Source: Balanoglossus misakiensis
Taxonomy: Eukaryota > Animalia > Hemichordata
DNA length: 64,000 nucleotides
Direction: 5' to 3'
NCBI GenBank assembly: GCA_040954595.2
Contig: CM082597.2
Span: 8,390,343 to 8,454,342, forward strand
Positions within the stretch are counted from its first letter, which is position 1. Each line of letters opens with the position of its first letter. The notes beneath the pieces were generated by a model. That model was not told where the DNA came from. It searched no databases and saw only the letters and a program-made list of their open reading frames with translations. Shown in pieces: positions 4,694 to 61,213 of this stretch. Position numbers and translations under genes: made by a program.

Positions 4694-5266
4694 TGTTACG
4701 ACACACCCTGTTTAGTTGCTTGGTCGAGAGAGGGGTAGCTTTTCTTTGCATAACAAAGGGCCCTGCCTTTTGAAGTAGTTCATTTAAATATTGGTAATAA
4801 CCAGATGGTCACCCATATGAAAGGCCTTCTCACCAAAACCACGAGGCACACTTCTCAACACGGACTCGGAGGAGCACGTAGCTGTCGTAGCTCCAGCTCC
4901 ACATCGCCTTGGGAATTAGGAATTTACCTAGCTGGGCTGGATTCTGTGAGCAACCGACTTCATGAGCAACGGATTTTGTGTGAGCAACGGACTTTGTGTG
5001 AGCAACGGACTTTCTGTGAGCAACTGGATTCTGTGAGTAAATGGCTTCTGTGAACGACGGACTTGGTCAGCAACGGACTTCTGTGCCTTGAGTTCGGCCA
5101 GGACTTTTGTGGACTCGGTAACTCCTCGACCAAGCAGGGTAAAAACACGCAGTGAACATTTTCTTTTGTGTGACCTTTTGATTTTAGAAGGCTAGTTGTT
5201 TAATTAAATATTCTGTTGTTGAACCACATTCTCCATTGTGTGCTCCCGGTTTTTTCTACCGTAACA
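4694..5266 (+). mobile_element. 3' LTR of the Gmr1-like element (about 573 bp)
   Basis: Begins TGTTACG and ends CGTAACA (7-bp terminal inverted repeat), follows the PPT, contains ATTAAA near 5202, and abuts another Gypsy pol. Confidence 0.9.
4938..5086 (+). repeat. Degenerate ~18-bp tandem repeat inside the LTR
   Basis: About 8 units resembling TGTGAGCAACGGACTTTG. Confidence 0.85.
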
Positions 5267-7790
5267 GCGGTTTATGTGCTGTGATGATTCTGAATCTGGG
5301 TGCTCCCAACAGATATATGCGGAATCTGTTCTTCGCCCATTTCACTGCTAAAGCATCTTTCTCAGTCTGGCTGTATCTTTTCTCAGCGCTTGTCAAAGTG
5401 CGACTGATGAAGTGAACTGGTCTCAGGCCTTTCTCACTCTGCTGGAAAAGTCCTGCTGACAGTCCTTCATGGTAACTAGCTTCTACTCTTACTGTGATGG
5501 GTTTCGATGGGTTGAAGTAAGCCATAGTATCTTCATTTGTGATACTGTCTTTGAGGTTCTGGAAAGCTGCGTTTTCCTTCTGTCCCCATCTGAAATGGAC
5601 ATCTTTGTGAGTAAGCTCTCTCAGGGGTGCTGTCAGTGATGTGTACCGTGGTAAAAACTTCGAGAGATATCTGATCATTCCCAGGAAGCTTCTCACTGCC
5701 TCCTTGGATTTTGGTGCTTTGCATTCTTTCACAGCTCGGACTTTCTCTGGTGTTGGCTTGAGTCCATCTTTCGTGAATCGGTATCCGTAGAATTCAATCT
5801 CCTCAACTCCAAATTTGCATTTGTCAAGGTTGAATGTGATCCCGAAATCCTGTGCTCTCTGTAGGACTGTTTCTAGTGTTTTGTTGTGTTCTTCTACTGA
5901 ACGGCCTCCCAAGAGGATGTCATCGCGTTGGTTGAGACATCTTGGTATGTCACCAAATATTCTGTATATTGTCTCGTCAAACAAATCTTGTGATGACTTG
6001 GCTCCAAAGATCAGTCGTTTCGGCCTCATGTTGCCCCATGGTGTGCTGAAAGTTGCTACTGCTCGAGATTCTGGATCTAGCAAGAGTTGGTGATATCCCT
6101 GCCTCATATCAAGCTTGGAGAATATCACACAGTCGTTGAACTTGTGCTCAAAATCTTCCACTATTGGGCTCTGGGTGATTCTGTTTCTCTCCATGTACTG
6201 ATTTGGTACTCTCAAGTCTACACTTGCTCTGATCATGTGTGGCTCTAGGTTTTCCCTTAGTGTCTCATGGAATCTTGGTTTTGGTTGTACTACAAGGGGT
6301 GAACACCATGTCACTGGTTCTCCTTGTGGAACTTCTTCAAAGATTTCTTCTTGTATACAGTGCTCCAGCCATTTCTTTAGTGGTTTCTGCAGGTAGTATG
6401 CCACAGGTCTGGGTTTCTGGGCTACTGGTACTGCTTCTTGCTTCATGCTGAACTTGGCATAAATTTCTCTATCATTCTTCATATCTCTTATTCTTCCAAT
6501 TCCCTGGAATACATTTCCGTATTTCTCTGTTATCTCTTTCACTTGTTTGTCCAGTATTTCACTCTTCACTGTTTTGATGTCTTGATTTTCTTTTATTCGT
6601 AGATTGTTGACCTCTGTCAGCGATCCATCTGGTTTTATTTGCATCATACCCAATTCAGTTAGTGTGTTCCTGCTCAGCAGTGGTGGTGAATTTATCCTAC
6701 CTCTGACTACGATGAACTTGGCTTTCACTCCACAGGTTTTGTTTCTCACTATGGTAGAGAATTCGCCTTTCACTGGTAATCGATCTTGCAAAGTGTTTAG
6801 CTTTGTGTGACTGTCCTGTAGTTTGATCTCATCGCTGGATCTGTGTTGTAACGCTTTGAACAGATGTTCATCCATGACATTTACCTCAGCTCCGGTGTCA
6901 GGTTCCTTCTGTGCATCAACATCATTTATTCTGACTGTGACAGTTTTTCCTGTGTAAGTTTCATTTGCTCTTTTGATACCTTTGACGTGTTTAATTGCAT
7001 GCTCAAAGTAGTCGTCATCTGAACTTGTATTGCTGTCTTGCTCTTTTGTTGAAGTTTTCTTTATTCTTCTCTGCTGTTTTCTATAGTCACCTTTCTCTTG
7101 GGCACTGCTAAGTGTCTTTCTGCTTCTATACCCTGTGTCTTTACTTCCTCTGTCTGGATCTGCTCTACACACAGAAGCGAAGTGGTTTCTCTTTTGGCAT
7201 TTCCTGCATTGTTTACCAAAAGCAGGGCAGTTCTGTCCTTCTTTATGAACTCCAGTCAGTCCACAATATGTACACTGTTTACCATCATGTGCAGGTGTCT
7301 GTTTTCTTTTCTCGGGTTTTCCGTGTTTCTTGGTTTGTCTGTATTGTCTCACTTTTGCGACACTTCTCTCACCTGACTGTTTCATATCACGCATTTGTAG
7401 TGAGGTGTCCTCCATTTGCGCTGCTTCAGTCAGTAACTGAGTAAGAGACCATTTCTTGTTTATTGCTTTCTGTATCAGGGTGCAATTGTCAATTGTCTGG
7501 ATGATATGTTCCAGAATTCTCTCTTCACAACTCGTGCCGAATTCATACTCGTTGGCTTTTTCTCTCAATCTGGCTGCGTATGCGACAGTGCTTTCATTTG
7601 TTGTCGGAGTCATTTTGAGAAATAAATACCTTGCGTGGTGTTTATTCTTCTTTGGCGTGTAGTACTCATTTAGTTTCGTTTTCAACTTCTCATAGACGTT
7701 TTCTCCCTCTGTGGGGTCAGGTAAACTTTTCTCGAGTCTCGCTATCTCTTTTCCTCCATAGATTATCATGGCATCTTTCTTATCTGTACA
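5267..7790 (-). mobile_element. Second Gypsy element (gag-PR-RT-RNase H), 5'-truncated and interrupted in RNase H by the Gmr1-like LTR
   Basis: Two zinc knuckles (CTYCGLTGVHKEGQNC, CRKCQKRNHFASVC), protease PDTGAEV, RT (LDMRQGYHQ, LIFG, NQRDD), RNase H (VEASY, RYSQTEKDAL, ITAHKPL). The ORF is cut at HKPL by the LTR end. Confidence 0.93.
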
Positions 7791-7924
7791 CTGTGTTGCT
7801 GCACAAAAATGTCTTGGCATGAACACACTGCATGTGCTTATCACCCTCAAAGCCAAAAGTGCTCTGCATGTGCTTATAACAATCAAAGCCAAAAGTGCTC
7901 TAACACAAGATATATTATTCATTA

Positions 7925-8275
7925 AAGGGACAAAGTCTCTCTTCTTCCCCATTTTTAATTAATTATGTTTGATACAAGACACCGTTTATGTTATTCTACA
8001 TGTGGATTTATAGGGAATCGACGTTCAACCACACACTACTTCCATCCCACTTGTAGACGAGAGGGGAAAATCTCGCCAAAATGAATAATCAGTCTCTACC
8101 ATTTATTCATTTTGGGCGAGTTTTTATTTTCATATAATACAAGCAGGATGGAAGTTGTGTGTGGTTGAACGTTCATTCACTACATGTACATATACACATG
8201 TACATTAACATAAACAGTGTCTTATATCAGACATAATTAATTGGAATGGGGCAGCGAGAGAGAGACTTTGTCCCT
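7925..8275. mobile_element. Palindromic ~350-bp MITE with TTAA TSD and AGGGACAAAGTCTCTCT termini (Kolobok-like); other copies at ~9146-9496, 25258-25612, 27930-28279, 44179-44526, partials at 13146 and 33095
   Basis: ttaa|agggacaaagtc...gactttgtccct|ttaa, with long internal inverted symmetry, repeated at several loci in the window. Confidence 0.85.
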
Positions 8276-8651: not shown

Positions 8652-9931
8652 AGATCACAACAAGTGATGACTCATAGAGGAGGAACCACAGCATGTGATG
8701 ACTCATCTAACCTGTCCACTTACCTAGACATTTAGGACAGCACTGCCCTGGTACACTTGCAAAATTAGAACATGTTGTGGCTTCACACACTGTTAAATTA
8801 CAAGTCAAAGTACCATCCTGTAAATACAAATTATTTAATGGGTTATTATTATAGAAATTATGGACGACCATTGACCCTGACCCTGACCATTGATACTTTT
8901 AATAGTAAAGGAATGTATGTGTGCACCAATGTTCATGATGCATGTAGACTAGACAATGTTTCTCCTACGTGTATTAGTGGAACATTTTTGTTTCGGTTAT
9001 AAGGTCTCTGTACGTATGATTTTTAGTTTGTATGCATTTTTCCACAGCTTATGCGTACAGTGTAGGTCTTGGCATGAACACACTGCGTGTGCTTATAACC
9101 CTCAAAGCCAAAAGTGCTTTAACACAAGATGTATTCTTCATTAAAAGGACAAAGTCTCTCTCTCGCAGCCCTTTATCCATTAATTATGTTTGATACAAGA
9201 CACCGTTTATGTTATTGTACATGTGGATATATAGTGAATCAACGTTCAACCACCCACAATTTCTATCCTGTTTGTAGACACGAGAGTGAAAAACTCGCCG
9301 AAATAAATAATTGGTCTCTACCATTTATCCATTTTGGGCGAGTTTTTACTCTCATATCCTACGAACGGGATGGAAGTTGTGTGTGGTCGAAAGTTGATTC
9401 ACTACATGTATATATCCACATGTAGAATAACATAAACAATGTCTTGTATCAAACATAATTAATGGAAAGGGGCAGCTAGAGAGAGAGACTTTGTGCAGTG
9501 ATGAGAACTTACCAGACACAAGCAGGATCTACACACATCACCAAGAGGGTTGAAGCGATCATCATCAGCATACAAGATATTATTGTATTCACACAGACTA
9601 CAGTCTGGACAGCAATCAGAAGCTGTGTACAGTCCATGCTCACATGTTACTGGGCACTCTAATTCTGTACAGGTAATCTTGGAATCAGGCTGAAAGAGGA
9701 ACGACAACTATCAGGTTCATACTGTAAAACACTTTACTTTCACGAGTTGAAATTTTCACGATATCGAGAGAGGCCACTGTTTCGCGAGTATTAATTTTCA
9801 CATTCTCTTATTTCATTCACTGCATCGTTATCTTCAAAAAAATGTTATGCGACTTTTTATTTTCACGCTATTTTGGCTCTCGTGTATTTCGCGAAAATTT
9901 ATTGCTCGCAAAAATAAAGTATTTTACAGTA
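8652..9931 (+). repeat. Segmental duplicate of 43655-44945
   Basis: Near-identical intron, MITE and VWC exon sequence; ORFs 8772/43775, 9129/44163 and 9459/44395 match. Confidence 0.93.
9722..9929. mobile_element. TA-flanked CTGTAAAA...TTTTACAG MITE (Tc1/mariner-pogo type); copies at ~19089, 19839-20014, 22306-22514, 27000-27150, 31085-31275, 33884-34089, 34322-34520, 34563-34768, 44754-44943
   Basis: ta|ctgtaaaa...ttttacag|ta termini with internal TTTTCGCG/CGCGAAAA motifs; about 10 copies. Confidence 0.82.
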
Positions 9932-39281: not shown

Positions 39282-41022
39282 TCTGAAAATAGAGAAAAAA
39301 AACATCCATTGTAATTATTCAAGTCAATACCAATCCTCCCTTCCATTAACAATTTCCCTAAAGGGAACAAATTCACATGGCTTTGAAATTAAGTATTAAC
39401 AGTGATATTTTAATATTTCTAACAGACACGACTTTTCTAAACTTTGAGTCTTTTTTGTGGATTTGTAGAAATTATCTACAAACTGAGCTGTCAGGTCATG
39501 GCTGTTTGTGCTTTGGCATGCACACATATCCCAGAATGCCCAACAGGGTTGGCAGTGAAATTGATAAACTCTTCACCTAAGATTTCAAACTCGTAGATCT
39601 CAATAGATTCTCACACTCCTGGCATGCTGAGAGTGTGGGATCAGAGTGCGAGAACAAATCAATCCCACATTCTCACTGAATCGAAAGCTGTATATGACAC
39701 GAGCGCTGATTGGATGACAAAGCGTTATTTAATAACGTGCGCTAAATGTTATCCAATGACGTGATACAGAAACTACAATGTGCCAGATGACAGTTCAAGA
39801 TGTTTTAAGACGAATTGGGCTAATTTATGGCCATGTGAGAAATATAATCTCACACACCAAAGACCTGGGATCATATTTCGCACACTCGTCAGGGATATTT
39901 TGTCCCACACTCGCCTGCAGCTTGTTTGGGACAGAAAATCCACAATTCATGTGAGAAATATGAAATTTGTACAGTCCTATGAACCTAAAACATGAAACAA
40001 AAAATGTTTGCTTGTTGGTAGTTTCCCGGAACAATTAAAAACCGCGTCTCCTCATCAATTTTGACATTTTGAAAGATGCTAAACAAAAATCATTTTTTGG
40101 CCTTATCGGTAACAGAGTGACGCCATTTTCTGGGTAGCCAGAACTCACTTCCGGCACAGCATTTGGGTGTTTCACATTTCTCCGTTGTTGCTGGCTTATC
40201 TGTCGACAAGCAAGGTAACGTAAATAAGGGATTTATAAGTGGCCTTGACAGTGACCATCACATAAGACTTCTTGACCCTATGACCTTTCATGTGATGAGC
40301 AGTTGCCAAAATAACTTTCTCTTTGTGACCAATCCAGACCGAACACTTTTCTATTCTACTACACAGAACAAACTAAACGCAAAGTAACTCATGAAGGAAA
40401 ACGCTGACAAAATCTACGCCTACCAGTAATTTTCAAATCAGGTAACTGCATCTGAATTTATACAAATTAATTGAATATTGCCTTTGTGGTTGTCTGATGT
40501 CAATTTTTAATTGAAGAGTTGTTGTGTTAGAGTTAACTTGTGTGAATTGCTTGCCTTTCATTCTGACAGTCAATTATAATTTCAGGATGCAGCTCCCACT
40601 TCTAGATTGAACATATGAAATATTTTAAATATATGTATTTATATTTTAATGTAAAACACTATATCACAAGTCATCCTTTCACCAGAGGTGGGCCAAACCG
40701 TAAAGGAAACTGTGAACAACCATTCAATGCTCAGATATTTGGATTGACAACTCTACTCTTTGGCACAATATTCAATTTCAAACATTTTTGAATACAGTAA
40801 TAAATGCATTTAATATTGCATGTATTAAATTTTGCTATTTTACAATTGGGGCCAGTGAGTGAGCATTTCAAAAAAAGAAAAGTCACTGTTTGTTCCTTTG
40901 ATTTGTGTATCATTTGATCACTGAAACCATACACTTTCATTGACGAGAAGTGTCAAAACATCCACAGGTCTATTCATTGAATGTGAGGTGCAAAGCTAGA
41001 AATGGAGATGTTACAAGTAGTG

Positions 41023-43647
41023 CACGAGCGTCGTATGTGGAAATCTAATGGTTGGATGAGAGAAATAAAAATCGCATTGTTTGTTGTTTGCACATGCGCA
41101 CAAAGTCATTAAATATGGCGTCCTTCATGTCATTTCGGGAACGATCGCGATCGTCGACGAAAAAAGTTGTTGCATCTGCCTCACGAGAGCATCATCTCGT
41201 TTTGACAACTCAAAATCGTATGCCAAACACTTAGGGGCATGTTTCGGAGCCGCGCTGAAGGTATGAGTGGCTATTTGTGCATGACATGCAAAGCAAGTAT
41301 TAGAAAGTTTTGCGAGGATCGATCATTGGACTTCAGCCACTTACTTGACAAAAAAGGCCAGAAAGGTGGAAGTAAAGGACAAAGGCAGTATGGGGGACAA
41401 AGAATAAAACTGGCAAGGTGGGAGAGTTCTTCATCCACGTCGACGAGTAGCGAGGAAATAGGCAGCGAAGGTTGCGGCTGTGACTACCGGAGTTGGTTAT
41501 CTGCGGCAGGTGCATGTGGATTGCTGCCACCCGATGTCATTGTCAGTATTCTTCATCACGTAAATGTCACTGATATTGTGAATTTCACATCAACATGTTC
41601 ATTTCTGCATACATTTCGAGCTGATGCTATAATTTGGTGTCAGAAATGTATTCATGATTTTCCAGAGAAGTATGCCACACTGATATCTCATAAGGCAGGC
41701 TTTTTTTATTACACCACATCATGGTTTGAAATTTACAAATTATCGAAATTTTCTGATCTCAACCACCAAAATGACACACAGCAATATTTAAGTCAGATCA
41801 AATCACTGTCTGTTCATATGAATAATGCTTCATGGAAATTAATGACCTGAAGGAAAAGTTGGCAGAAACATAGAACTCTCTCAGTGATATTTTGACCATG
41901 TCACCATCCAAACCACTCACAGTAACACAAGAAAAAATCTTCAAAACTATGACAGTAGTTAAAGAAATAAGGAGTTTGGATGGAACCATAAAAGCTGTTA
42001 GTTCCAGAGGAAGACCAAAAGTGTATATTGCAATACCCCAGACAGAAACATCATCGATAGAAGCTACAGAAAGATCAAAAAGAGCCAAGTGTCAGCTGAT
42101 GGAGAAGATTGAAAAAATGCAGTATGTCAATAAAAATGAGAGTGGAGAACTTAATAAAGCAATTTAGTTGCTCAACATGCGTAAAGAATAAGCCGAGACA
42201 AAGCTATCTACATCAAGGCAGCACGAGAAGCTGGTATACCAGTACAAGGAACATTTTCCAGGGAAACAAGTTCTTGCTTTTAAGAGCATAATGCCAATGA
42301 CAACCTGGCAACCTGGTGTTGATGTGCTAGGAACAGAGAGGCAGTTAAGACAGGAGCTAGAAGAGATGGAGTTTAGCTATGAATACGGAGGTTTTGAGAG
42401 TGAAGAGGAAGGTGGACCAATTACAGTCCTTTATGTGCGAGTTGCAGATGTACAAGAAGTTCTTCATAAAATGGTTGCAGAGTTCAAGGCAAATGGAAAG
42501 CTGACAAATTTTGACAATATATCAAGAGACACACTGTGGCTTTGTGTATCTGGTGACAAAGGTGGCAACTCTACAAAACTGATGTTACAAGTCATGAACA
42601 ATAAGACTCAGCATTCTATTAAGCAGTCTAAACTACTGTGTTTTATTTGAGGGTGGACATGATACCCGAAAGCATATTGAGATGGTGTTCAAAGATATCA
42701 TTGCTGACTTATGCAAGTTGCAGACAGAAATCGCAGAAATGAAGCTGGAACTGCCTGAAACATTTCAGTGTGACAAAAGAACAAGGAGCCTGGGATCACA
42801 AGGTAAATTTGTAATTTCTTCTGCTTAATGTCACTAGTCATTACTTTGAAAATTTACCCGGATTTTTATGATAACACAGCAAATGTATATTAATTTGGAA
42901 ATGTTTTCATTACTAGTGCCAACAAGTGATGGTGTACGTCCAACGAGAACTACACGGACTGGATTCAAACCACTGCGACCCTTCAATGAAGATAATCAGA
43001 CTGTCAGTGTTAATTGTGCGTACTGTAAGCTGCAACATGGTAAGCAAATTGACATCACCCAATTAACAATAAATGTACAATCATTATAATTGTGAAGCGC
43101 TTCCTTTGATTAAAATCACTGGTTTTATTATAGAGAATTTAACAGTGACACCTCTTCACCTGTGTCTTGGCATCGGGCTGATGATACTGAACCTGATTGA
43201 ATCTATGTGTCTGGAATTAGATCGGACATTTTTCAGTGAGAACGGTGTACATTCTGATGAAATGGAAACCTTGCTAGAAAGTCAGAGAAAACTGTCAGAT
43301 GACTTACTCTCTTCAGAAAAGAGCTAAATTTGCTTGAAGAACAAAGTCATGAAATTCAAAAACACATAGATGATGTCAAGGAAGAGTATGCAAACTATTA
43401 TGAAAAGTCAGGTGGGAAGTTAATTGACAGGTCAAGTGATGCTAAAGATGCCAGAAGAGAAAAAACACAGAAGGAAAATGCTTTACTCGAGAAACAAAAA
43501 CTAATCAAGCTACAACTAAAACATGTTAAAGAACAACACAAATTAACAGATAATAGTCTTCAAAATGTAATAACAAAACTGGCATGTCATGCAGGTCATG
43601 GGCGATCGATTAGATTGTCAAGGCGCTTATGGCGGCGAACGCTCGTG
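41023..43647 (+). mobile_element. Internally deleted RAG1/Transib/Chapaev-like DNA transposon with CACGAGCGT termini
   Basis: Left CACGAGCGT (41023) and right ACGCTCGTG (ends 43647), with an inner AATCTAAT box at both ends, enclosing transposase fragments. No clean TSD. Confidence 0.68.
41115..43595 (+). pseudogene. Degenerate FAM60A-like zinc domain + F-box + RAG1/Transib-like DDE transposase
   Basis: CCICLTRASSRFDNSKSYAKHLGACFG...SGYLCMTC; LLPPDVIVSILHHVNVTDIVNFTSTCSFL...IW; GRPK; WQPG; LCVSGDKGGNSTK; PLHLCLGIG. Multiple frameshifts and stops. Confidence 0.7.
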
Positions 43648-43654
43648 TGAGGTG

Positions 43655-44945
43655 AGATCACAACAAGTGATGACTCATAGAGGAGGAAGCACAGCATGTG
43701 ATGACTCATCTAACGTGTCCACTTACCTAGACATTTAGGACAGCACTGCCCTGGTACACTTGCAAAATTAGAACATGTTGTGGCTTCACACACTGTTAAA
43801 TTACAAGTCACAGTACCATCCTGTAAATACAAATTATTTAATGGGTTATTATTATAGAAATTATGGACGACCATTGACCCTGACCCTGACCATTGATACT
43901 TTTAATAGTAAAGGAATGTATGTGTGCACCAATGTTCATGATGCATGTAGACTAGACAATGTTTCTCCTACGTGTATTAGTGGAACATTTTTGTTTTGAT
44001 TATAAGGTCTCTGTACGTATGATTTTTAGTTTGTATGCATTTTTCCACAGCTTATGCGTACAGTGTAGGTAACTCGAAAAAAAACAACAAAAAACTTAAG
44101 TCTTGGCATGAACACACTGCGTGTGCTTATAACCCTCAAAGCCAAAAGTGCTTTAACACAAGATGTATTCTTCATTAAAAGGACAAAGTCTCTCTCTCGC
44201 AGCCCTTTATCCATTAATAATGTTTGATACAAGACACCGTTTATGTTATTCTACATGTGGATATATAGTGAATCAACGTTCAACCACCCACAATTTCTAT
44301 CCCGTCTGTAGACACGAGAGTGAAAAACTCGCCGAAATAAATAATTGGTCTCTACCATTTATCCATTTTGGGCGAGTTTTTACTCTCATATCCTTCAAAC
44401 GGGACGGAAGTTGTGTGTGGTCGAAAGTTGATTCACTACATGTATATATCCACACGTAGAATAACATAAATAATGTCTTGTATCAAACATCATTAATGGA
44501 AAGGGGCAGCTAGAGAGAGACTTTGTGCAGTGATGAGAACTTACCAGACACAGGCAGGATCTACACACATCACCAAGAGGGTTGAAGAGATCACCATCAG
44601 CATACAAGATGTTATTGTATTCACACAGACTACAGTCTGGACAGCAATCAGAAGCTGTGTACAGTCCATGCTCACATGTTACTGGACACTCTAATTCTGT
44701 ACAGGTAATCTTGGAATCAGGCTGAAAGAGGAACGACAACAATCAGGTTCATACTGTAAAACACTTTATTTTCGCGAGCAATAAATTTTCGCCAAAATAG
44801 TGTGAAAATAAAATGTCGCATAATTTTTTTAAGATAACGATGCAGTGAATGAAATAAGAGAACGTGAAAATTAATACTCGCGAAACAGTGGCCTCTCTCG
44901 ATATTGCAAAAATTTCAACTTTCGAAAATTAAGTGTTTTACAGTT
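43655..44945 (+). repeat. Segmental duplicate of 8652-9931, including VWC exon 44544-44721
   Basis: Near-identical sequence starting agatcacaacaagtgatgac. Confidence 0.93.
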
Positions 44946-47705: not shown

Positions 47706-48625
47706 TTAAACAATATTTTGTTTGTAAACTGTCTGTGTTTGGACATTGCTGAATTCTTAGGGTCAGGATTAAATTTAACCATCAACAATAACAAGGCTGG
47801 GTATATGAAAGATAACATTTTGTTATTTTAATAGCTGAATGTAATTTTCTTTCAAATTTTACCGACCTGGAAATGGATTTAAGTATACATATCATTCCAT
47901 GGTAGCACGAGTTTCTGCTTTACTACAAATTCATTCTCCCAATCCTGACTAGATTTGAGATGCAGATCATCCTTATGTAAATGAATGCTTCATCAATAAA
48001 CTTGATGACACAACAGATCTAACTACATGTGCGGTTACCTTAACAACTATGACAACAATGTCCAGGGTTGGGCAATGGATGTGTGCATTCATGTTTACAT
48101 ATCTGTTTGACACAAGTTACAATTCCTTCACTACAGGTACAGATTTCACATTCATCAACAGGACTGGTCCGTGTAGAATTGTGGTGATATTCTATATTGT
48201 TGAATACACAACCTATAGCACAAAAAGATTCGTTTGGAATCAATTATTCTTTGGAAATAATTACCAAGAGCTTTATACTTTTGATTAAAACCTTAACACT
48301 ACTGGGCGTCATACCCGTTTAGAGTGTCAGGGGCCCTTAAAATATATATGTGCCCTTTTTCTTCTTAAAGGTATTTTGACTGTCTTGGCATGGCTCTCTA
48401 ACGTACTTAAACACACTTGGCAGTCTGAGCCCCCTGTAAAATGTACCATATCGCACTGGTTTGCACTGTATTGGTCTGAGGGTCTTGTATACACCACTTT
48501 CATAAGTAGCGCCCTGTACAGGCGATGACGTCATTCGGGGGAAAGTTTGAAGAAGCCATTTTGTCAACGGTATTTTTCTTATGTGGCGCCTGGTGTTTTT
48601 TCAACGCGGTCGCGGGAAGCTGGAA

Positions 48626-51252
48626 ATGGCTGCAAAAATGGTGAGTGCGATTTCAGTTTTCTTCTCAAAGTCCTTATTTGGTTCTGCCAAGTAATTTCAG
48701 ACTGCCGGTCACTCATAAATATTCATCGGCGGCATTAATTTTCATTACTTAAATATTTACATCCTATTACTTATTCATGTCCTCAACGTACTTGCTCTAA
48801 GCAGCTCAGTGATCGAGTTTTCATTCACAACTAATACAAAAGACCAAATAGCTACAATGACACAACATCTGAACAACTAAATACTATTTGCAACTGTTTC
48901 ACACCTCTGGTTTTTGTTTCCTTCACGATCTTTTGTTTATTTAACAGCAATGTACATGGGCCAGCCAGGGCTGCAATTTTTATCACTTTCATTCCATTGA
49001 CAGGCTATCCTTTGAGCTACCACTGAGCTGACTGAAGTGAATCATGAGTTTTCAGAACGGTAGAGTGGCAAATGCTGTGCAGCCTAGCTGTAATTGTACA
49101 AATGTGAGTGATTGTTTTTCAGATGCTTCAATAATGGTTACACATGCAAAGTGAGAATTCACATATTTTCAGTAGAAATATGCCTAATTGAAATATTCAT
49201 TTGTGTTGATAATTTTTTAATGTTTGAACTACTTTATCCAGGTGACCAGACCCCTAATTAAATGCTTTGACTTTTTTTCTATATAGCTAACTGAGGAAGA
49301 CATACCGGGTTCTGTTTTATCGAAGGATGTTGAAAAATGCAAAAAGAGTGAACTACAGTTTTGGTTAAAATGCCATGGATTAGTGCACAATTCGGCGGAT
49401 ACCAGGGCAACACTCATAACAAGGTCATTATTACTCTTGCTTTTCACTAAATAGAGTCCAATGTGTTGAATGCTGATATTGATGTAATGGTCATTAAATG
49501 CTTTGAAATATCTATCAAAACATGTTTTTCAGAGTCCGGAAGAGGTACCATGATGCCCATACTATTGTTGACCCTGATCCAGGACTGTGTTACACACGGG
49601 CGAAGAGGCTCCGTTGTCCAAGATGTAAAGATGAATACACTGTTGATAAGACTCAAACTGTGGACATTTCTAGTTGTGATGATTGGACCAGTTCTTGTGG
49701 TTCAATACCAACAGGTTTCTCATATGTTCAAATTATGAACCATGTGAAAAAGTCGGGCAAAGTTGTTGGGGATTATGTTGAAAAACCACTTGATAAAGGG
49801 TACACATTTTTTTATGAAAATTATGTACACAATGTAAAAAGCTGCAAAACAGACACACATTGTTTAATCAAAGGGAGGTGTTACAGGTCCCAAAAGAAAA
49901 ATGAACCGCCCCATTTTGTCAGCTTGTCACTATGTTTAGTAACAGCTGAGGTTTTTAATGCAAAGTGCTCATGTGTTGCAGGTACTGCAGGACATTGCAA
50001 TCATATAGTGGGACTTTTATATTTACTTGACCACTGCAAGAAATTAAAACTGAGAGAGTTTCCTTTACTGGGAACATGCACAGATAATCCACAAAAGTGG
50101 CATCGTCCCAGGACTGATGGAATTGCACCTGAACCAATAATGGGATACAATGTTTTTAGACCAAAGTATGGGACATCTTCCTCTGGGGTAGCTTGTACTT
50201 TGTATGAAGCTAGGGGGAAAGCTGTATTGCAGACATCAAATGATCAATTGAAAGAGCTCAGTAATGATATTCAGGACTTAAATTTGGGTTTTTCTCATTT
50301 GACCCCCACAACTGATGATACTGATATGGTACCAACAAAAATGGGTTTCCATGTGCCTGTGGGTAGTGTTCTCAGTTACCAGTTGTCCTTAACCGAAGGC
50401 AATTTTGATGTCCTGTGTAATATTTCCAATGATTTCATTGTAGAATTTATTGCAGAAACCTACCCTAGGCTTCCACTGTCTGCTGTCCCTATCTTCAACA
50501 TTAATGGCCCTTGTATTGAGAGTGTGTCAAAGTTCCTAGATAAACTTAAGCTGAACTCTGATGCATCAGCGCAACTAGAAGAACAGACCCGTGGCCAGTG
50601 TTGTAACCCCTTATGGTTTGAAGCCAGGAAATTCAGATTAACGAGCAGCAAATTTGGGGGGGTTGTTAAAAAAAGACCTTGGGGAAATCATAGCAAATTT
50701 GTACGCAGCTTATTAATCACAAAAGACATGTCGCATATTCCAGCAATAAAATATGGCCAGGATAACGAATCAAAAGCTTTAAAAAAATATGAAGATTTCA
50801 TGATAAGTAGTGGTAGGCAGGTTTCTGTTTTTAGGGCGGGTTTAGTTGTGAACCCATCAATGTCCTGGTGTGGCGCATCACCAGATGCCAAAGTTATTGA
50901 TGAACACAGTGGTGTTGGGATTGCTGAAATAAAATGTGCATATGCATATAGAGATGTCAGCCCCAGAGATGCATGTAGTGACACAAGATTTTATTGAGAA
51001 ATAGTGGATGGTGTGCCTCGTCTTAAAAAAAATCATAATTATTATTTTCAAGTTCAAGGCCAGATGGGCATATGTGGTGTGTCATGGTGCGACTTCGTTG
51101 TATACACAAATAAAGGTCTGTTGATAGAGAGAATAAAGTTTGACGTTTCTTTCTGGGAGTCAATGATGGAAAAACTTATTGGTTTTTACGAGACACATTT
51201 TGTTCATGTAGCATCTGAAATGATAGATTTTGTAAATATAGATGCAAATTAA
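48626..51252 (+). pseudogene. Element A SAP-SWIM-YqaJ (lambda-exonuclease-like) gene; exons 48626-48640, 49287-49423, 49533-51252
   Basis: MAAKM|LTEEDIPGS...ELQFWLKCHGL...TRATLITR (SAP-like); CSCVAGTAGHCNH (SWIM); WFEARKFRLTSS, GASPD, EIKC, YYFQVQGQM. In-frame TGA at 50995. Confidence 0.88.
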
Positions 51253-51331
51253 GCTGAAATGATAGATTTTGTATATATAGGAGCAAATTAAGCTGAAATG
51301 ATAGATTTTGTAAATATAGATGCAAATTAAA
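51215..51331 (+). repeat. 39-bp tandem triplication spanning the nuclease stop codon
   Basis: ctgaaatgatagattttgtaaatatagatgcaaattaag x3. Confidence 0.9.
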
Positions 51332-51622
51332 CTACTATTGTACTAGCAGTATGGAATTCAGTCTTGTTTTATTGTTGTTTTAACATGCACAATACAATTC
51401 AACAAAAACAATTACCATTAGATATCTCATACATGACCCTGTTATTTATTATATTAAAATCTCAGTATTGTCCCGTTATAGCCCCAGTAACACTAATTTT
51501 GAGACACTGTGTCAGTATTTTTTGTTGTTACTCCATATTTCCAAAACATGATGAAAAAAACAACAGAAATGTTATTTAATAACATTTCTGTTTTTTTTTT
51601 CATCATGTTATACCACCGGGCT

Positions 51623-53811
51623 TTAATCTGGCACAGAAATGATTGGGTTCTGGAAGAGAGTCAAAAGTGCACAGACTGTCCATATCTGATTGATTGACCC
51701 TGTTAATGACATAGGGGTTCACAGAATCAAAAATATGGAAATTTTTCACTTTATTTATTGCTCTTTCTACATGGATTCTTTCTGATGCAATCTGCTGAGT
51801 TTCAATAACATCACAATCTGGCATTTGTCCCCTTTGCCCCAGAAATGGTGGGATATTTAGCTTTACATTGATTGGATCAAGTAGATCCTGAATATCAAAG
51901 CCTTTGTCAGCTAGTATGCCATCTCCTGGCTCAAATTAATTTTGCAATAGGCCACTTCTGATGGTCAAATCACGATCTGAAATACTACCAGTGTACAGCT
52001 GTGAGACAAAGCTGATGTTACCAGCAGGACTGATTCCAATCAGACCTTTCAGTGTGTTTGTTGATTTATAATTTGAATATGATTGAGATTTCAACATTAA
52101 TGATGATGGCATTTCAATCTTTATTTCTGTTGCATCAATGATTATACGTGTATCAGCATATTTCTCTTTGAATGAATCTGGCATTGTGTTCACAACAACC
52201 TGCTTAGATGGCCATATATTTATGGTACCAAGTCGGAGATACAGAAAATTTGACCAGGACAGAACAATATTACTGACAGTGGTGACAGAAACTGAAAATC
52301 GATATGACAAATCACGCTCAAAAAGACCCAACCGTACCCTGCACAAAAAAAGAAATAACTGATTTTGCACAGACAATTTCCGCGGTCTTCTAACCTTTGT
52401 TCCAGTCTGCTGGTGGGAACTTGCTGTCTGGCGAACATTTACGAGATTTTCACCATTTGGCCCAGGGTTTACATATTTTAGAAGGGAATTAAAAACATGA
52501 ATATTAGGAAAACCTGTGTAAAAAGAAATATCACACTCTTTGATGTTCTGTATCAAAAATTCGGAGTTGCGAAGAGCAATCTCCAGACGATGGTTCTCTA
52601 CAGTTAATTGTTGGATTTTGTTTTTAAGTTCCTCCATTTCTTTGGCCATGATTTCAAAACGTGAGGAAGTTTCTTCATCAGCCCTTGCAACCTTGGTCGA
52701 TGCATCCCCAGATTCCAACTGCATCATGGTTGTCTGGTTCTCATCCGTTTTGCATAACCGCGACAGTTGCAGAGCATTAAATGGCCGACTTGGCTTAGGC
52801 TGAGCTGTTATATGAGGAATATCTTCCCAACACTTAAAAACACACGGGACAGCCCCTGAATGAATCGTCCTCCTGCCACTGAATTGGTGAAACTCAATAT
52901 CATCTTCTCTGAAACGGAGGGAGCAAACAACTGTATGATTTCCAACCTGAAAAATAAAAAACAAATATAAGCAATAGTAGAGGGATTATATTTTAGATTC
53001 AGCATGTTTCCAAAGACTTGATTTGTGTTGGAAAGCTACACAGTGGCTGTGACCTATATTTATATATGTACAACATTTACATTAATGAAATTTTCATCTA
53101 ATTCTTTAGACAGGAATATTTGATTTTTCATTTTTCATAACAGCAAGATGGTGTTTAGGGCTTTAAACAAATCGCTCCAAAATGTTCATTTTAAGAAATT
53201 TAAATACCTTAAAGGACTTGTCTTCATCACGTCTTATTTTTGTCAGCCATATCTTTTTCATTTCTTCATTTTGTGGAAATTTATGATACGTAACAGTACC
53301 ATGCCCAGGAACAGAAAACTTCCCATAGCTGGTACAGCGTGGCACAGCACAGTTTTTTTTTTTGTAGCATTCCTGGAGCTCACCTTAGAAAAAAGCTGAA
53401 TAAAAAAATAATATGTGATGTAAAAATAAATGAAAAAAACATCATGGTGGTATCTACAAGTTATGCTGATCACAGCCCTGGCTGGCCCATGTATATTGCG
53501 GTTAAATGAACAAAAGATCGTGAAGGACACAAAAACCAGAGGTGTGAAACAGTTGCTAATAGTATTTAGTTGTTCAGATGTTGTGTCATTGTAGCTATTG
53601 GGTCTTTTGTATTAGTTGTGAATGAAAACTGGATCACTGAGCTGCTTAGAGCAAGTACGTTGAGGACATGAATAAGTAATAGGATGTAAATATTTAAGTA
53701 ATGAATATTAATGCCGCCGATGAATATTTATGAGTGACCAAATTACTTGGCAGAACCAAATAAGGACTTTGAGAAGAAAACTGAAATCGCACTCACCATT
53801 TTTGCAGCCAT
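51623..53811 (-). pseudogene. Element A THAP + HTH + DDE_Tnp_4 transposase; exons 53797-53811, 53208-53395, 51623-52946
   Basis: THAP CAVPRC..HKFP..W...IRR|VCSLRF..AVP; IIDATE, SISD, ILADKGF, RIHVERAI. Lesions: poly-A frameshift near 53355, TAA at 51936, frameshift near 51715. Confidence 0.9.
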
Positions 53812-54328
53812 TTCCAGCTTCCCGCGACCGCGTTGAAAAAACACCAGGCGCCACATAAGAAAAAAACCGTTGACAAAATGGCTTCTTCAAACTTTCCCCC
53901 GAATGACGTCATCGCCTGTAGAGGGCGCTAGTTATGAAAGTGGTGTATAGGCCCTACTGAGTAACACACACTTGGCAGTCTAACAGGTCTGGGTGCCAGG
54001 ATTCTAGGAACCCTGGTAATCAAACCAGATTTAACCGACATGCCAGTGTTAGTGTTAGTGTTAGAGTGGAAAGTTGCCCAAAATTGCAACCATCATTATC
54101 TTCATACGACCAATCCTCTGAAATCAATAGGGCTGTATATCATGGAGAAGTATCTGATGGCTTCAATGCCTCTTTACGGAAAGGTACCCGGATGTAAATC
54201 AAAACGAGGCTCTAGGGGGCACTGCAGGTCAGGGACACTGCGCCATTGTTTGAACAAAGTTTGTTTACATAACATGACCTTTAGTGACACTAATATTTTG
54301 CGTACGTAAGACGTACTACGTTTAAATA

Positions 54329-55754
54329 ATGGGAAAGTGGTATTGTGCTGCAGCCCTGTGTAATAACCAAGCCAATAAGTGTCCAGAACTGTCGTGGCAT
54401 ACATTTCCCACTGACGAAAAGCGTCGGAAAGTGTGGATCGCGCTGATGCGGCGAGCAGACGATTTCTGCACATTTCAAGACATCAGACTTTAAGATCGGA
54501 TTGGCGGGTAAGCGATATCTAAAGCCAGGAATTTTACCGTCCATCTTTCCCTGGACAAAATCCACAGCTACCCGTCCTTCGCCGAGTCGAAGCCGTCTCT
54601 GTCTCGTTGATGATAGCGTACGTCTGCCCGTAACAACGACGTCAGGTAACATTTCGCCCCAGTCCAGTTCAGCGGTTTTAGGACCCCTTACTCCGGAGGA
54701 ATGTCTTACTCTTGCCGACAAAGTTCAACGACTCGAGAAAGAAAATCAACAGTTGAAGAAAGAAAATCTACAACGTCAACAGCAACTAGACATTTATAAG
54801 TTTGGACTGGACCGTTTTTCGTGTAGTGACGATGACATTTATTTTTATACCGGCTTTCCGGATTACAGAACTTTAGTCGGGTGCTACGAATATTTAAAAC
54901 CGTGCGCCGAACATTTGCATTACTGGCAGTATGCACAGAGAAGGGCGAGAGAAAGTTCGTACACTCCGAGTCCGGACAGCGATGCCAGAAAAACTGGAAG
55001 ACCACGATCGATGCAGCCTATCGATGAATTTTTTTTAGTACTTTGTCGGTTGAGGTTGGGCTTATTTGAGCGAGATTTAGCCCATCGCTTTTCTGTTTCA
55101 ATTTCCGTTGTATCTGATATTTGTATTACTTGGATTAATTTTATATATTTACAATTTGGAAGTTTGCCCATTTGGCCATCGAGACAAAAAGTCAATGAGC
55201 ATATGCCTGAGATTTTCAAATCCAGTTATCCTGATACCAGGTGCATCATCGACTGTACAGAAATTAAATGTGAAACACCCAGTGACTATGGGAGACAGTC
55301 GGAACTGTGGTCTGAGTACAAAACCCATGATACTTTGAAAGGCCTTGTTGCAATAGATCCTGCTGTTGCCGTGACTTTTATCAGTCCGTTATTTGGGGGC
55401 TCAGCATCAGATAGAGTCATCACTGAGCAATGTGGTCTTCTCGACTTGCTGGAGCCAAACGATAGTTTAATGGCAGACAAAGGGTTTGATTTGGGTGATC
55501 TACTTATCAAACGAAGGGTGACACTAAATATTCCTCCAAAGCGTCGACCTGGTCAAAAGCAAATGAGCTGTAATGATGTTTTTGAAACTCAGAGAATTGC
55601 AAGTGTTCGCTTACACGTTGAACGAGCTATAGGCAGGGTGAAGGCGTGGCACATATTTGATCTTGTTCCACTAACTTTGTACGGATCTATAAATCAGATG
55701 TGGGTTGTCTGTTGCTCTATTGTGAATTTTCAGAGGCCAGTGCTGTCATGCTAA
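54329..55754 (+). pseudogene. Element B THAP + DDE_Tnp_4 transposase (intronless; frameshifting deletion in THAP near 54464)
   Basis: MGKWYCAAALC..HTFP..W..LMRR / SAHF..LKPGILPSIF; IIDCTE, ASD, MADKGF, RLHVERAIG. Confidence 0.9.
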
Positions 55755-55896
55755 TTGTAATTAATTATGATTATGTTAAACAATGATTAAGAAGATCCAC
55801 TTTGTAGTGCTCAATATATGCTTGGTATCGTCATCTGTGGGGACTATGAGTTCTGGATACATGGCTGTGTGAGGGTGTGTCTATTGTGGTGTCTGC

Positions 55897-56172
55897 AAGG
55901 TCATTGAACTTCTGGTCATCACTCAGTGACCTTGTTGACCCCACAATAGGCAATACCCCCCAGGTTTCCAAGGGATGAATATATGGAAAAGTCGCTCATT
56001 TTTACATTATTTATTACATTATTTATTTTCTTTTGAAATATTTTTTGTATGTTTTAATTCTATATATGAGCTACTTTTCCATATATGATTTCATCCCTTA
56101 GAAACATGGGGGGTATTGCCTATTGTGGGGTCAACAAGGTCACTGAGTGATGACCAGAAGTTCAATGACCTT
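55897..56172. repeat. Fold-back inverted repeat (~100-bp arms) between element B's convergent genes
   Basis: aaggtcattgaacttctggtcatcactcagtgaccttgttgaccccacaatagg... with its reverse complement ending gttcaatgacctt. Confidence 0.85.
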
Positions 56173-57164
56173 TATTTTATGTTCTTCTCCTCACTGAAGT
56201 ATACTTGATTGCCGGTTGTTACAGTTCAACTCTCACCCTATGGGTGGTTATAATGCATGACTTCTTCCATAAAACAATTTTTGGTACATACCAAAAATTA
56301 AATTGTTGGAGTAGTCATGCATTATGTCCATGTGAAGGGAGTGAGTCAAGCTGTGACAACCAGTGATTGAATCAATTTCAATAAGAAGAATACAAAAAAT
56401 ATTTGACAAGAAACTTAAATAACCAAACATGAGCTGCAACAATGAATTTTGGTTTCCACCTCATAAGGACATGACCTTGTTCTGTTGACTGAAGCTTGTA
56501 GAGGGATGTCATAGCTCCTGAAATGTTAAAGACCTGGTGTTTAGAATGTTGACCAAAATGGTTAAATTTGATAACTAAATTCAAGCTTGTAAATCAATTC
56601 ATATATCAAACAATCACTACATCATTACTTGCTAATTTGACAGGGAAATTAGTATGTCTTCTTGATTAATTCCTGAAATTTATGTAACTATGTAATAAAC
56701 TTGAGCGTAGACAATGAATAATCATTAATTTATTTTATTGCAGTACCTTGTAATAAATAAATATTTTGTAAATTAATAAAATAATTCAAACCATATATCA
56801 TTATGGTTAAAAAATACTTTAAATAGTATGTGTATACATATCCTTAAAAGTCGCTGATGGAAAATTTCTATCAATATTTACAGAGAATGTATTTACAAAT
56901 TACATATATTTACAGATTTGAATTAAAAGTTTGATATTTATTTGGACAGCAATGCCACATGGTCTCTTGGTAATATTTTTCACCAAGTTTTAGAAAGTCA
57001 AGCAAGCATTTGTGACTGACAGAAAATACACCATGTTTCCAGATATAAAATGAATAAAATGTATGTACTTCATTTTTCTCACAAGTTTTTCTCACAATGT
57101 TTTCTGACTTAACCATGAAAACAATCACATATTTTTCAGTCTTTTCAGGTTTAACAGTATTGAA

Positions 57165-60051
57165 TTACATTTCATTTTCACAATGTGCAAATTTAATGTA
57201 TGTTGAGGTGAGGACTGGCAACATGACTTTAATCCAAACTTCATGACTGAATCTCACTCTTTCAACATAAATTTCACCATGTCCTGTGTAGACAATAATG
57301 TCACACCATTTCAGGCCACTGAGGGCCATCTGTCCCTGAATTTGATAAAAATAATCATGCTCTTTATTTAATCTCATACAGTCAGTATTTTTCAAACAAA
57401 AAATTACCATATCAGGATGAGAACCTGCCTGTAGAGGTGACAGACCTAACTGATTTGCTTTGTACGATGTTTTGATCTCTGCAAGGCCAAATGAATCTTC
57501 CTCTGTACAGTCATACACAACAAGGTCAGGGGTAGCACCAAGATATGGAATAGCTGGATTTATTATCAAGCCAACACTAGAAGTTTGAACAGGTGAACAA
57601 TTCCTGTCTTTAAATTCTCTGTACAATTTAGCTACAGTAGCTTCATTTTCCTTTCCAAACTGGATTGCTTTTATGTGTGACAAATTTCTGGGGAATTTAA
57701 GATTTTGAATAAATTTTTCAGAGATTACTTTCCTTTTGATAATTTGACCAAAGTTGGATGCAGTAATTCTGTTTGCTCTTAAAACATGCCACTGTGAATT
57801 ACTACTCTGTGTACGAGTTTGTTTTTTCAATATTTTGTGATTTAGCTAAAGATACTGCCAGAGACTTTAAGACATCAGTTGGAAATAAAGTGAAATCTAT
57901 AGAGTGATTAAGTACATTTACAGGTAATGGAGGAAAAGATATTGATAGACTGGCACTGTCACTGACAGGCATATGATAGCTTACAGGAGACCCATATGGC
58001 ACCATACCAAATTGACTTTGGACCATATCACATTCATCAGGTATATTTCTTACAAGAGCATTAACAATATTGTTCTGTTTGAAATATTCCTTTAACTTTT
58101 GAACTTTTCTCATTTCAAAGTTAGCATACTGTGCGGGTCGTGGATCATACAATGTTTGATGAATGCCTTGTTTTCTTTTAGTGCTTGTAGAACTTGTGGA
58201 AGGTTTTGGTCTCTGTATTGTAGAATGGATGATTGGTGTATGTGCTACCTGTCTTTTAGTTTTACTTGCCCCATTGTTGTTTTTCTTCAGTTTTACTTTT
58301 CAAAGAGGGTGCTTCTTTGATATCACGAAGACAGAAGTCATCAAGCTGCCAAAGGAGTGCAACCACATGACAACATGTACCACTCAATCTGATAAAATAG
58401 AATAATGATAAAACATACAGTGTAGTTTAGTACGATAATATAAGTGTAGAATATGTTATAACATATACAGTGTAGTACAATACAGTATAATACATTACAG
58501 AACAGTACAGTACAGTGAATTACAGAAAGAGAGTACATGACATGAGAGTGCTATACAATAACTTACAGCTGTTCTGGACAGTTACAGTATTTTAGAATCC
58601 ATACTTTATAATACAATACAGTACAACACAAAAGGACTACACTACAGTATGTACATGTATCACTGTAAAGGATAGTACATGCTGTACTGTTAAAACGTGT
58701 GCAGTATAATAACGTGCACCAAGATTTAATGATTCATTTGATAACAGACTTGGGAAAAATGATACTGAATGATATAGACATACCCTGCAACACATTCTGG
58801 TCTGCATATAGCAGCTGCAACACGATTAGTACCAACTTTGTCCAGAACAACCAGTATACTGTGTTTAGTTCCCTTAGCCATTGATGCCCAACAGAATGCC
58901 TTAACATACACCATTCTTTCAGTTGCAGCCATCTTAACACCATGGACAAATCCAGACTGAAACAGGGCGAAACCTTTACTAAAATTATTGCCAGTCATTA
59001 TGCATCCAGTGCTCTCCTGAAAGAAAAAAAAACAGACATTTGAAGTTTTGATTAAGTTTCATTCCACCATGTTACATTATTCTTAAAACTTGCTAGTTGT
59101 AATTTCTGACTTTTTTACAGCATTTTTTCAACAACAGTTTCTTGGTCTACTCTCAACAGAAGTCAGAACTTTTCACTACTCAAATGATCAAAATACCTGT
59201 ACAGTAAAACCCCCTAAATTGAAATGATTATTGCCATTTGAAAATGAATGCGGGAATGCACAAATCAAGTGTCACTTACCTTAGACTTATATGTCATTTT
59301 GCCCGACAATTCCAATGCAGAGTCTATATCAGCAGGTGTGAAAACAGGTATCTGTGTCACATCTGTCGTGAACTTCTCATCTCATAGTGACCCGGGTGTT
59401 TACGTGTATTCAGACCAGCGGAATTTTAGACAGCAAGAGACTGTGGTCAAACCATAGACATCTGACACTGACGTGAAACGTACCATCATGGAGGTATAAC
59501 GCTTATACCTCCGTACCAAACAAGCAAACCTATAAACTTTGTCAAAGTTGATTAAACTTTGATGCGATGGGATAAACATTTGTGTGACTAAACAACAACT
59601 TACACAACGGTGCCAATCTCGTCGGCCGTCTGCTCTGTGGAACAAAGTCATAGTACCGTTCGGCTTCAAGTTGAATATCACGATCACAATGTCAATACAT
59701 AGTTAACAACATGCACACGATATAAAACCCAGAAAAAATGCGCGACGAGACGAGAACATTGCCACCGAGTGGGATATTTCAAGAATTGGCGTTTTTTCCA
59801 CAAAAATATCACGATATCGATAAAATGTACATTGAAGTTTGAACGACGACGACAAGCAATAATAAGTGTACTCACCGTTCGACCAAAGTCTTCTTATTGC
59901 CAGTCACACCGAGTCTTCGAACACGAAGCCAGAACACTTATTCACTGACCCTAAGCGTTGTAGGATCACGACCGTTCAGATCTGACCCAGGTATGTCCGC
60001 TGGAACCAGCTGAACATCACCAAGTTCGACGACTGATGCCTGATCATTCAT
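57165..60051 (-). pseudogene. Element B SAP-SWIM-YqaJ nuclease gene (exons ~59876-60051, 59280-59529, 58783-59016, 57165-58388)
   Basis: MNDQ...LVPADIPGS...LRVSE*VFWLRVRRLGVTGNKKTLVER (SAP-like); ICRPECVAG|LSGTCCHV (SWIM); WHVLRANRITAS, LGATPD, EIKT, YFYQIQGQM. Several frameshifts. Confidence 0.87.
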
Positions 60052-60157
60052 GTTATGTAAACAAACTTTGTTCAAACAATGGCGCCGTGTCCCTGACCTG
60101 CAGTGCCCCCTAGAGCCTCGTTTTGATTTACATCCAGGTACCTTTTCGTAAAGAGGT

Positions 60158-61213
60158 ATTTCTCCTAAACTTTTGACTCAGATCCAAAGACAATGAAGAA
60201 TTCAGTCTTCAAGATGTAAAATTCGCAGAAACATAAATAAATCAGTTAGATTGTTTTACCACATTTTGCAGAGAAAGGTTTTTGTTCAACAGTAAAATGG
60301 ACATATCTCACAGTTTCCGAATTGAATTTTTCCACAAAAGGAGACATGTGTACGCAATTATAAAAGAGATAAAATTGTGAAGATATTGTCAATTGTAACA
60401 ACTGCATGTCTTTAAATTGTCAATCAACTCTGTCCCTACTGATTTTCCATTCTGAGCTTCTGCGCATGACACAGAATGATTGCTTCAAGTTGAGCTGTAT
60501 TATTATGAGCACAAAAAACACACAGTTTTGCATATTATAATATAGTTTCAAAACGCTCAACTCACGCCATTGCGAGACACTCTCCATTTTTCTCAGAAAA
60601 ATCTGTCCTCCTGGGCCTGTGAGTCAAAATTTCCCCGTCTCTTGTGATTACGCGTCCGTTGTCAATCAGTCGAGCATCTATCCAGAATATTTCTCCTCGT
60701 CTAAGAATGTCTAGTTCTTTTAAACTGTTTACTATAGCTGGGTGTTTTTCTTCGCTGTCATCTTTAACAAGGCGAAGACCTAATCGCTCACAAAAATTGT
60801 AGGCAGAAAGATGATCCCTCTGCTTGAAAATCTGTAGGGTGACGCAACCTGGTAATCAAATAATAATTTTAAACAATCACAAAATATAAGATATGTGATG
60901 AGCTCCTGTTTTGAGGAACTTCAAACATTCTGAAGATGCAAAACCCAAAATTAGTGTCTTACCTGCTTGCTGCAGTAATGTCATCGACAACATCACGAAT
61001 GTAGCGACGAGCGTTAACTTCAAAGGTATTTCACGACATTCTTGTAACATCTTACAGCTTCTCCGGCAAGCCATGGTTGCGAGTTTGCGGCTAATCTGCG
61101 AGCATTTTATACATGTATATTTTGACAAATTATGTGTGTTTTGCAAAGAATTGTAACCACTGCAGAGAGAGAGATCGGGTCCTAAATGGTGACACTGTGT
61201 CGTGCTCGTTCAT
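60158..61213 (-). pseudogene. Degraded coding-like sequence of unknown identity, apparently split by element B
   Basis: ATG at 61213, donor near 60962, acceptor near 60850. Protein-like stretch RLGLRLVKDDSEEKHPAIVNSLKELDILRRGEIFWIDARL; many stops. Confidence 0.3.

Follow-up and report, generated by a model that had tools for sequence, protein, structure and literature searches.

Chapaev DNA transposons have among their hallmarks CAC..GTG termini and target duplications of 3-4 bp (PMC4079192; these two traits are also given in PMC3014272, PMC12730594 and PMC3630058), and the DUF1280 domain is ascribed to their transposases in PMC3985635. In two Chapaev subgroups a Chapa domain is followed by a RING finger, according to PMC4411706, and both domains are also covered by bioRxiv 2026.01.24.700457. 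RAG-like (RAGL) and Transib transposons duplicate 5 bp (PMC7204232), and the origin of the 12/23 asymmetry is debated between them (PMC8355894; bioRxiv 2023.08.20.553239), asymmetric ends being also reported for oyster and amphioxus RAGL (PMC8355894). In RAG1, the nonamer is contacted by a GRPR/K motif within the nonamer-binding domain, whose dimer is described as pivoting to fit the 12/23 asymmetry (bioRxiv 2023.08.20.553239).

Here we describe an element of a known kind with two features that we did not find described. In the literature covered, which lies outside Repbase Reports, subscription journals and preprint supplements, we found no report of 12/23-like end spacing in Chapaev and none of a Chapaev transposase with an F-box. 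The element lies in a stretch of 64,000 nucleotides of the hemichordate Balanoglossus misakiensis (contig CM082597.2, positions 8,390,343 to 8,454,342), referred to below as the window. It occupies positions 41023..43647 of the plus strand (2625 bp) and is a Chapaev transposon made defective by frameshifts and internal deletions. Its transposase matches DUF1280 (PF06918) in Pfam with E 1.2e-14 and 54.9 bits against a cut-off of 25, and we are nearly certain that the element with these ends belongs to Chapaev (CMC/CMCT clade). The closest protein is P0002 from Ptychodera flava, with 61-76% identity over the larger pieces, and relatives of the transposase were found neither in viral contigs nor in prokaryote genomes.

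The decay of the window copy was defined by comparison with P0002 and with contigs from a single sample, three public runs of which contain this stretch. The first part of the RNase H-like core (42240..42822, plus strand), which gives the DUF1280 match and is 68% identical to P0002, contains the first catalytic aspartate within a GDKGG motif (42552-42566, plus strand) as well as stops and frameshifts; 27 bp are deleted near 42309, where contigs of runs X1 and X2 have 27 extra bases. About 133 codons are missing at 43077, seen as a tblastn gap over P0002 residues 278-410, and the longer contigs of the sample runs diverge from the window at the same point. The second catalytic aspartate and the C(2)C motif have gone with this deletion, which lies just before the region of the LH motif (43151-43162) and the coiled-coil insertion (43076..43515, plus strand), and the protein's C-terminal portion, which would carry H(4)H and the catalytic glutamate, is missing ahead of the right end. 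From the DDE, C(2)C, LH and H(4)H set this copy retains the first aspartate and LH, and it is unable to encode an active enzyme. At about 250-490 in run X1, contig depth in the core is like that of the unique flank (354), which hints at a low copy number of the element. No RNA data sets were listed among those that contain the stretch, and no empty-site joint was present among the 15 joints listed of 53 in contigs of the sample runs; the paralog at 8652 is not an empty site.

An earlier note on this DNA had drawn attention to the termini, and the positions that it gave are exact: CACGAGC at 41023-41029, 12 nt and AATCTAAT at 41042-41049 on the left, and on the minus strand CACGAGC at 43647-43641, 24 nt and AATCTAAT at 43616-43609 on the right. 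The perfect terminal repeat is of 9 bp, CACGAGCGT (41023..41031 on the plus and 43639..43647 on the minus strand), and is found once per strand in the window. As many as 102 comparable inverted pairs of CAC-starting 9-mers stand 0.5-15 kb apart in the window, so that such motifs alone are insufficient as a proof of ends and outside support is needed. It comes from the transposase gene lying between the repeats, from a jump in CpG counts on crossing either boundary into the element (left: 15 within 178 nt, compared with 1 outside; right: 7 within 60, compared with 0 outside) and from a distant relative that ends in the same nine bases at several sites; positions 41023 and 43647 are true transposon ends. 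A contig of run X1 starts at 43648, the next base past the right end. Two caveats of the earlier note held as well: there is no target duplication of 3-5 bp, the left flank reading AGTG and the right one TGAG, and the right end is 7 bases away from the breakpoint of a 1.1-kb duplication that starts at 43655. The heptanucleotide directly right of the element, TGAGGTG (43648-43654), recurs at 40984-40990, 33-39 bases left of the element, and is possibly what is left of a more extended duplication of the flank that the breakpoint at 43655 interrupted.

The 1.1-kb duplication itself (8652-9746 and 43655-44778, 95% identical) contains copies of very abundant palindromic miniature elements, and other mobile sequences lie elsewhere in the window. 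At 48488-53949 a YqaJ exonuclease ORF (49507-50994, plus strand) faces a DDE_Tnp_4 transposase ORF (51939-52985, minus strand) inside a 486-bp inverted repeat of 96% identity, an arrangement that looks like an ISL2EU-type element. A convergent pair of DDE_Tnp_4 (54447-55751, plus strand) and YqaJ (57168-57845, minus strand) lies within a 113-bp inverted repeat at 54165-60160, and a 900-aa ORF at 5259-7958 of the minus strand, which matches zinc knuckle, protease, reverse transcriptase and RNase H, is by these domains a gag-pol piece of an LTR retrotransposon.

Independent ends were obtained from a scan of metagenome contigs, which gave 21 loci with relatives of the transposase. Four of them (L004, L005, L006 and L017) are 99% identical copies of one 9.5-kb element, about 35% identical to P0002; in L004 it has the complete DDE triad along with the C(2)C, LH and H(4)H motifs. 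A coral may perhaps be the host of these contigs. Their alignments stop exactly at a left end with CACGAGCGT, next to three different left flanks, and the right ends of L004 and L017 carry the same nine bases next to two different right flanks. At the site shared by L004 and L006 there is a 4-bp duplication, CCGT, whose left copy in L004 has one change, the match being supplied by L006; both L004 flanks are parts of one hairpin repeat, and therefore both ends belong to one insertion. At this one site a 5-bp duplication fails, TCCGT against CCGTA having four matching bases, and none of six left flanks ends in TWA. At L017 no target duplication was seen (CATT/GCTA), and the mismatch may come from a collapsed assembly. 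Right ends were obtained from two of the 21 loci, L004 and L017, which are of one family, and together with the window they make two families with both ends.

Two further families, L011 (position 2265) and L012 (position 761), provide left ends that start with CACG and stand in an ungapped MAFFT register, with 27/54 identical positions inside and 15/54 outside. The end of L012 was flagged by its likeness to the termini before the box was seen there, that of L011 was chosen among eight CAC sites after the box had been seen, and both stand without a right end or a duplication to confirm them. Other candidates were dropped before counting: L021 1175 lacks the box and does not resemble the left region of L004, the sites L002 959 and L009 923 are inside the element, and L011 2554 is downstream of the promoter block that L011 has in common with L012; L008 437, L021 767 and L013 2243 were dropped as well. 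Downstream of the transposase, conserved stretches of L004 (9330-10700, minus strand) and L001 (4907-5180) have no match in Pfam, and their sequence suggests that a second, small gene lies there in convergent orientation and that its product has a charged helix at the C-terminus.

The check in relatives bore out the bipartite structure of the ends. In the L004 family, which terminates in the same nine bases, the left heptamer is followed by 12 bases and CAACTTAAT (positions 20-28) and the right one by 23 bases and CAACTTGAA (positions 31-39); the word CAACTT that begins 12 nt after the left heptamer and 23 nt after the right one occurs once per terminal 300 nt. In the same register the window boxes fall at 19-27 on the left and 31-39 on the right, so that the 12/24 spacing of the earlier note equals 11/23. 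The offsets between left and right are 12 in the window and 11 in the L004 family, or 51 and 17 degrees from a full turn. A second AACTT word stands at position 51 inward from the L004 right end, 19 bases inside the right box, and is possibly an extra binding site.

How well the box is supported differs between the sides. Judged from the window alone, an 8-mer common to the first 50 bases of both ends exceeds chance by a modest margin (p=0.004 in shuffled sequence, p=0.026 against random window pairs), and the L004 left-right match has p=0.006 when offsets of 10-12 and left starts of 16-19 are taken from the window. With leave-family-out matrices, for which the training box positions were set by eye, the left box is the top match at position 17 or 18 in all four families, with p from 5e-05 to 0.0033; in the window it spans positions 17-27 from the end (41039..41049, plus strand, including AATCTAAT at 41042-41049) and has p=0.0033. 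The right box of the window, which in the L004 right-box register spans positions 29-39 from the end (43609..43619, minus strand), is the second-best match with p=0.013, and that of L004 is likewise second best with p=0.11, which is not significant. From these results the left box can be regarded, at the level of sequence, as firm in four families, and the right box and the one-turn offset as having the support of two families only. Inspection by eye of the remaining occurrences of CACGAGC in the window revealed no comparable box. Taken as a whole, we hold it quite probable that the box is real and is read by the transposase.

It might be argued that the left box, conserved across the clade, belongs to the promoter or is bound by a host factor, and that the right matches are due to chance or are remains of a longer repeat. 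Just inside the left end, L011 (2325-2400) and L012 (835-910) have common promoter-like blocks, GCGCATGCG and GCCGCCATCTT, which presumably resemble NRF1 and YY1 sites. The left box lies 50-90 bases ahead of these motifs. It stands at the transposase promoter, so that its conservation could be regulatory, and the right-box statistics are weak taken alone, the 9/11 left-right identity in the window having p=0.019 with any offset and the L004 match p=0.27 with the offset unrestricted. Such a reading does not easily explain, however, why the right box resembles the left box of its own element (9/12 and 8/12, the top match each time), which suggests that the two change together, or why the right boxes of the window and of L004 both start at position 29 after preceding bases that differ. 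We find this reading distinctly improbable.

The earlier note had gone further and interpreted the termini as one-turn and two-turn ends of a RAG-like transposon family. The bipartite ends, the box offset by about one turn and the 12/23 spacing in an independent family all withstood the analysis, and the assignment to RAG-like elements or Transib did not. CAC termini, L004 boxes at 20-28 and 31-39, where RSS have their nonamer, and RAG1 as the best structural match would be in favour of such elements, whose ends would then be true ancestors of RSS. Against this, DUF1280 is matched by 83 of 96 relatives as well as by the window transposase, the L004 relative has a 4-bp duplication and not the 5 bp of RAGL and Transib (PMC7204232), and the box is unlike a nonamer, its positions 5-6 in the 20-28/31-39 register being CT in the window and TT in L004 in place of adenines. 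Neither a RAG1 nor a Transib Pfam family was among the 25 of 65 families listed for the 96 relatives, and the piece taken from the window has no sequence match in PDB at E 10. We consider descent within the RAG-like or Transib groups highly improbable.

The model of the full-length relative P0026 (pLDDT 87.8, pTM 0.75) has RAG1 as its best Foldseek match (E 2.5e-17), followed by amphioxus RAGL (2.6e-09) and Transib (2.2e-06), and the family profile finds RAG1 among PDB sequences as a remote match at E 2e-10; by prediction, therefore, this protein folds most like RAG1. The structural alignments to RAG1 and Transib have 10-12% identity, and a long coiled-coil insertion follows the LH motif of the model, both of which also speak against membership in those groups. 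Foldseek alignments extend over 806-841 columns with RAG1 chains of about 590-620 residues and over 748-764 columns with chains of about 540-550, lengths that would fit an overlap into the nonamer-binding domain but do not prove one. A helical region ahead of the catalytic core (41874..42268, plus strand) contains RGRPK at 42006-42020. Across the family a conserved G[RK]P with helices after it precedes the core, the strict form occurring in 16 of 37 aligned rows and a looser one in 29 of 37. By its position and motif this helical region is a candidate counterpart of the RAG1 nonamer-binding domain. For the N-terminal region, profile A7 found no RAG1 match in PDB, and its monomer model found none with Foldseek, VIA or ESM Atlas, the best VIA Z of 4.9 being to generic helices.

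The second feature of the element is the make-up of its N-terminus, which begins with a C2-C2 zinc finger of FAM60A-like type (41168..41289, plus strand) split by a frameshift and matching Pfam FAM60A with E 3.1e-05, below the curated cut-off. By eye against a published alignment it looks like a single C2-C2 unit and not like the two-zinc Chapa domain, and its sequence makes a reduced Chapa domain likely. The zinc fingers of the window transposase and of P0017, P0050 and P0070 match the N-terminus of FAM60A, with a best E of 1.5e-13, which may be a hint that the transposase finger and this host protein family share an origin; the literature listed on FAM60A and transposons does not suggest that such a link has been described.

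An F-box-like domain comes next (41521..41682, plus strand), with a Pfam E of 4.8e-05, just below the cut-off. It is 30% identical (E 2e-05) to the F-box in the first exon of L004, which is above the cut-off, and in P0007 and P0017 an F-box and DUF1280 are found in one predicted protein, both above their cut-offs. At E 0.1 the F-box was seen in 6 of 96 aligned members, most of the others being fragments that lack the N-terminus, and P0106 has a RING in place of it. In a tree made by a quick method from 50 of 97 rows, one of them misaligned and most without an N-terminus, the six F-box rows are inside a 38-row group (support 99), apart from two rows with RING or long Chapa, and a shuffle test of this grouping was not significant (62 of 500). 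Whether transposons capture F-box domains is a question for which PMC12062965 reports that no evidence was seen, and an F-box inside a mobile transposase bears on it.

Bringing these observations together, we favour with modest confidence the reading that the window holds a dead F-box Chapaev whose box lies 11-12 bases further in on the right and whose transposase likely binds this box and may thereby pair a short with a long end. A transposase dimer would cut at CAC with its RAG-like DDE core and insert with a 4-bp stagger, and the helical GRP-motif region ahead of the core would, by analogy, bind the inner box on each end. The offset of 11-12 bases would keep both boxes nearly in phase, on the same face of the helix, and may bias each complex towards a left end joined by a right end, in the way that 12 and 23 signals are brought together by RAG1. 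The F-box may attract an SCF ubiquitin ligase, at the place taken by a RING ligase in RAG1 and in other Chapaevs.

That pairing of short and long ends is preferred or even required is an analogy to which we give a little less than an even chance. The box could also be a true site of the transposase with its asymmetry merely tolerated, both spacings being functional since a whole turn preserves the phase, so that symmetric pairs of ends would transpose just as well. In Transib both symmetric and 12/23 families are described (PMC1131882; PMC9435367), RAG1 without RAG2 is reported to show no 12/23 preference (PMC8355894), and no RAG2-like gene was seen here, the corresponding region being deleted in the window and three downstream ORF pieces in L004 having no Pfam match. 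But both families with two known ends have the short one on the left and the long one on the right, with a near-equal offset between unrelated spacers, and we think mere tolerance unlikely.

We may even suggest, tentatively and with more doubt than belief, that the 12/23 asymmetry predates the split of Chapaev from Transib and RAG, and that an F-box Chapaev pairs a 12-type left with a 23-type right end without RAG2, by means of a homolog of the nonamer-binding domain, its RING having been swapped for an SCF adaptor. A 12/23 asymmetry in Chapaev, outside Transib and RAGL, would if true mean either a deeper origin or a repeated arrival at this arrangement by the same fold. Because the L004 family has a complete set of catalytic motifs and is present at several sites in copies of 99% identity, it offers a single-protein, RAG2-free system for testing the 12/23 rule.

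Compared with known systems, the element shares with Chapaev the CAC..GTG termini, the 4-bp duplication in the L004 relative, an N-terminal zinc finger and, in intact relatives, a DDE core that carries the motifs C(2)C, LH and H(4)H, hallmarks taken from PMC4079192, and differs in having an F-box where a RING follows the Chapa domain in two subgroups and in its bipartite ends offset by one turn. Chapaev3 is set apart by a 3-bp TWA duplication (PMC4079192), whereas the L004 relative duplicates CCGT. With RSS and RAG1 there are in common the CAC start (heptamer positions 1-3), a variable spacer followed by a second box after 12+/-1 and 23+/-1 bases (12/23 in L004, 11/23 or 12/24 in the window), a predicted RAG1-like fold and a GRP-type motif ahead of the core; unlike RSS, the likeness to the heptamer is limited to CAC and the box has no conserved AA at nonamer positions 5-6, a criterion given in PMC1131882, and unlike in the RAG system the L004 relative duplicates 4 bp and no RAG2-like gene was seen. 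The asymmetric Transib families (Transib5, Transib2_AG, N1-N3_AG) likewise have a 5' end like RSS12 and a 3' end like RSS23 (PMC1131882), and a short left and a long right end are described for PflRAGL-A, with a 10-bp asymmetry (bioRxiv 2023.08.20.553239), and for AanRAGL, with 4/13 spacers (PMC9435367). All these are of another superfamily, with a different duplication length and box sequence, and Transib lacks both a zinc finger at the N-terminus and a ligase module. An F-box tied to a DNA transposon protein is known from an isoform of Zisupton (PMC12062965), whose transposase is of the unrelated KDZ group, whereas in the element described here the F-box stands between a zinc finger and a DDE core that is, by prediction, related to RAG1.
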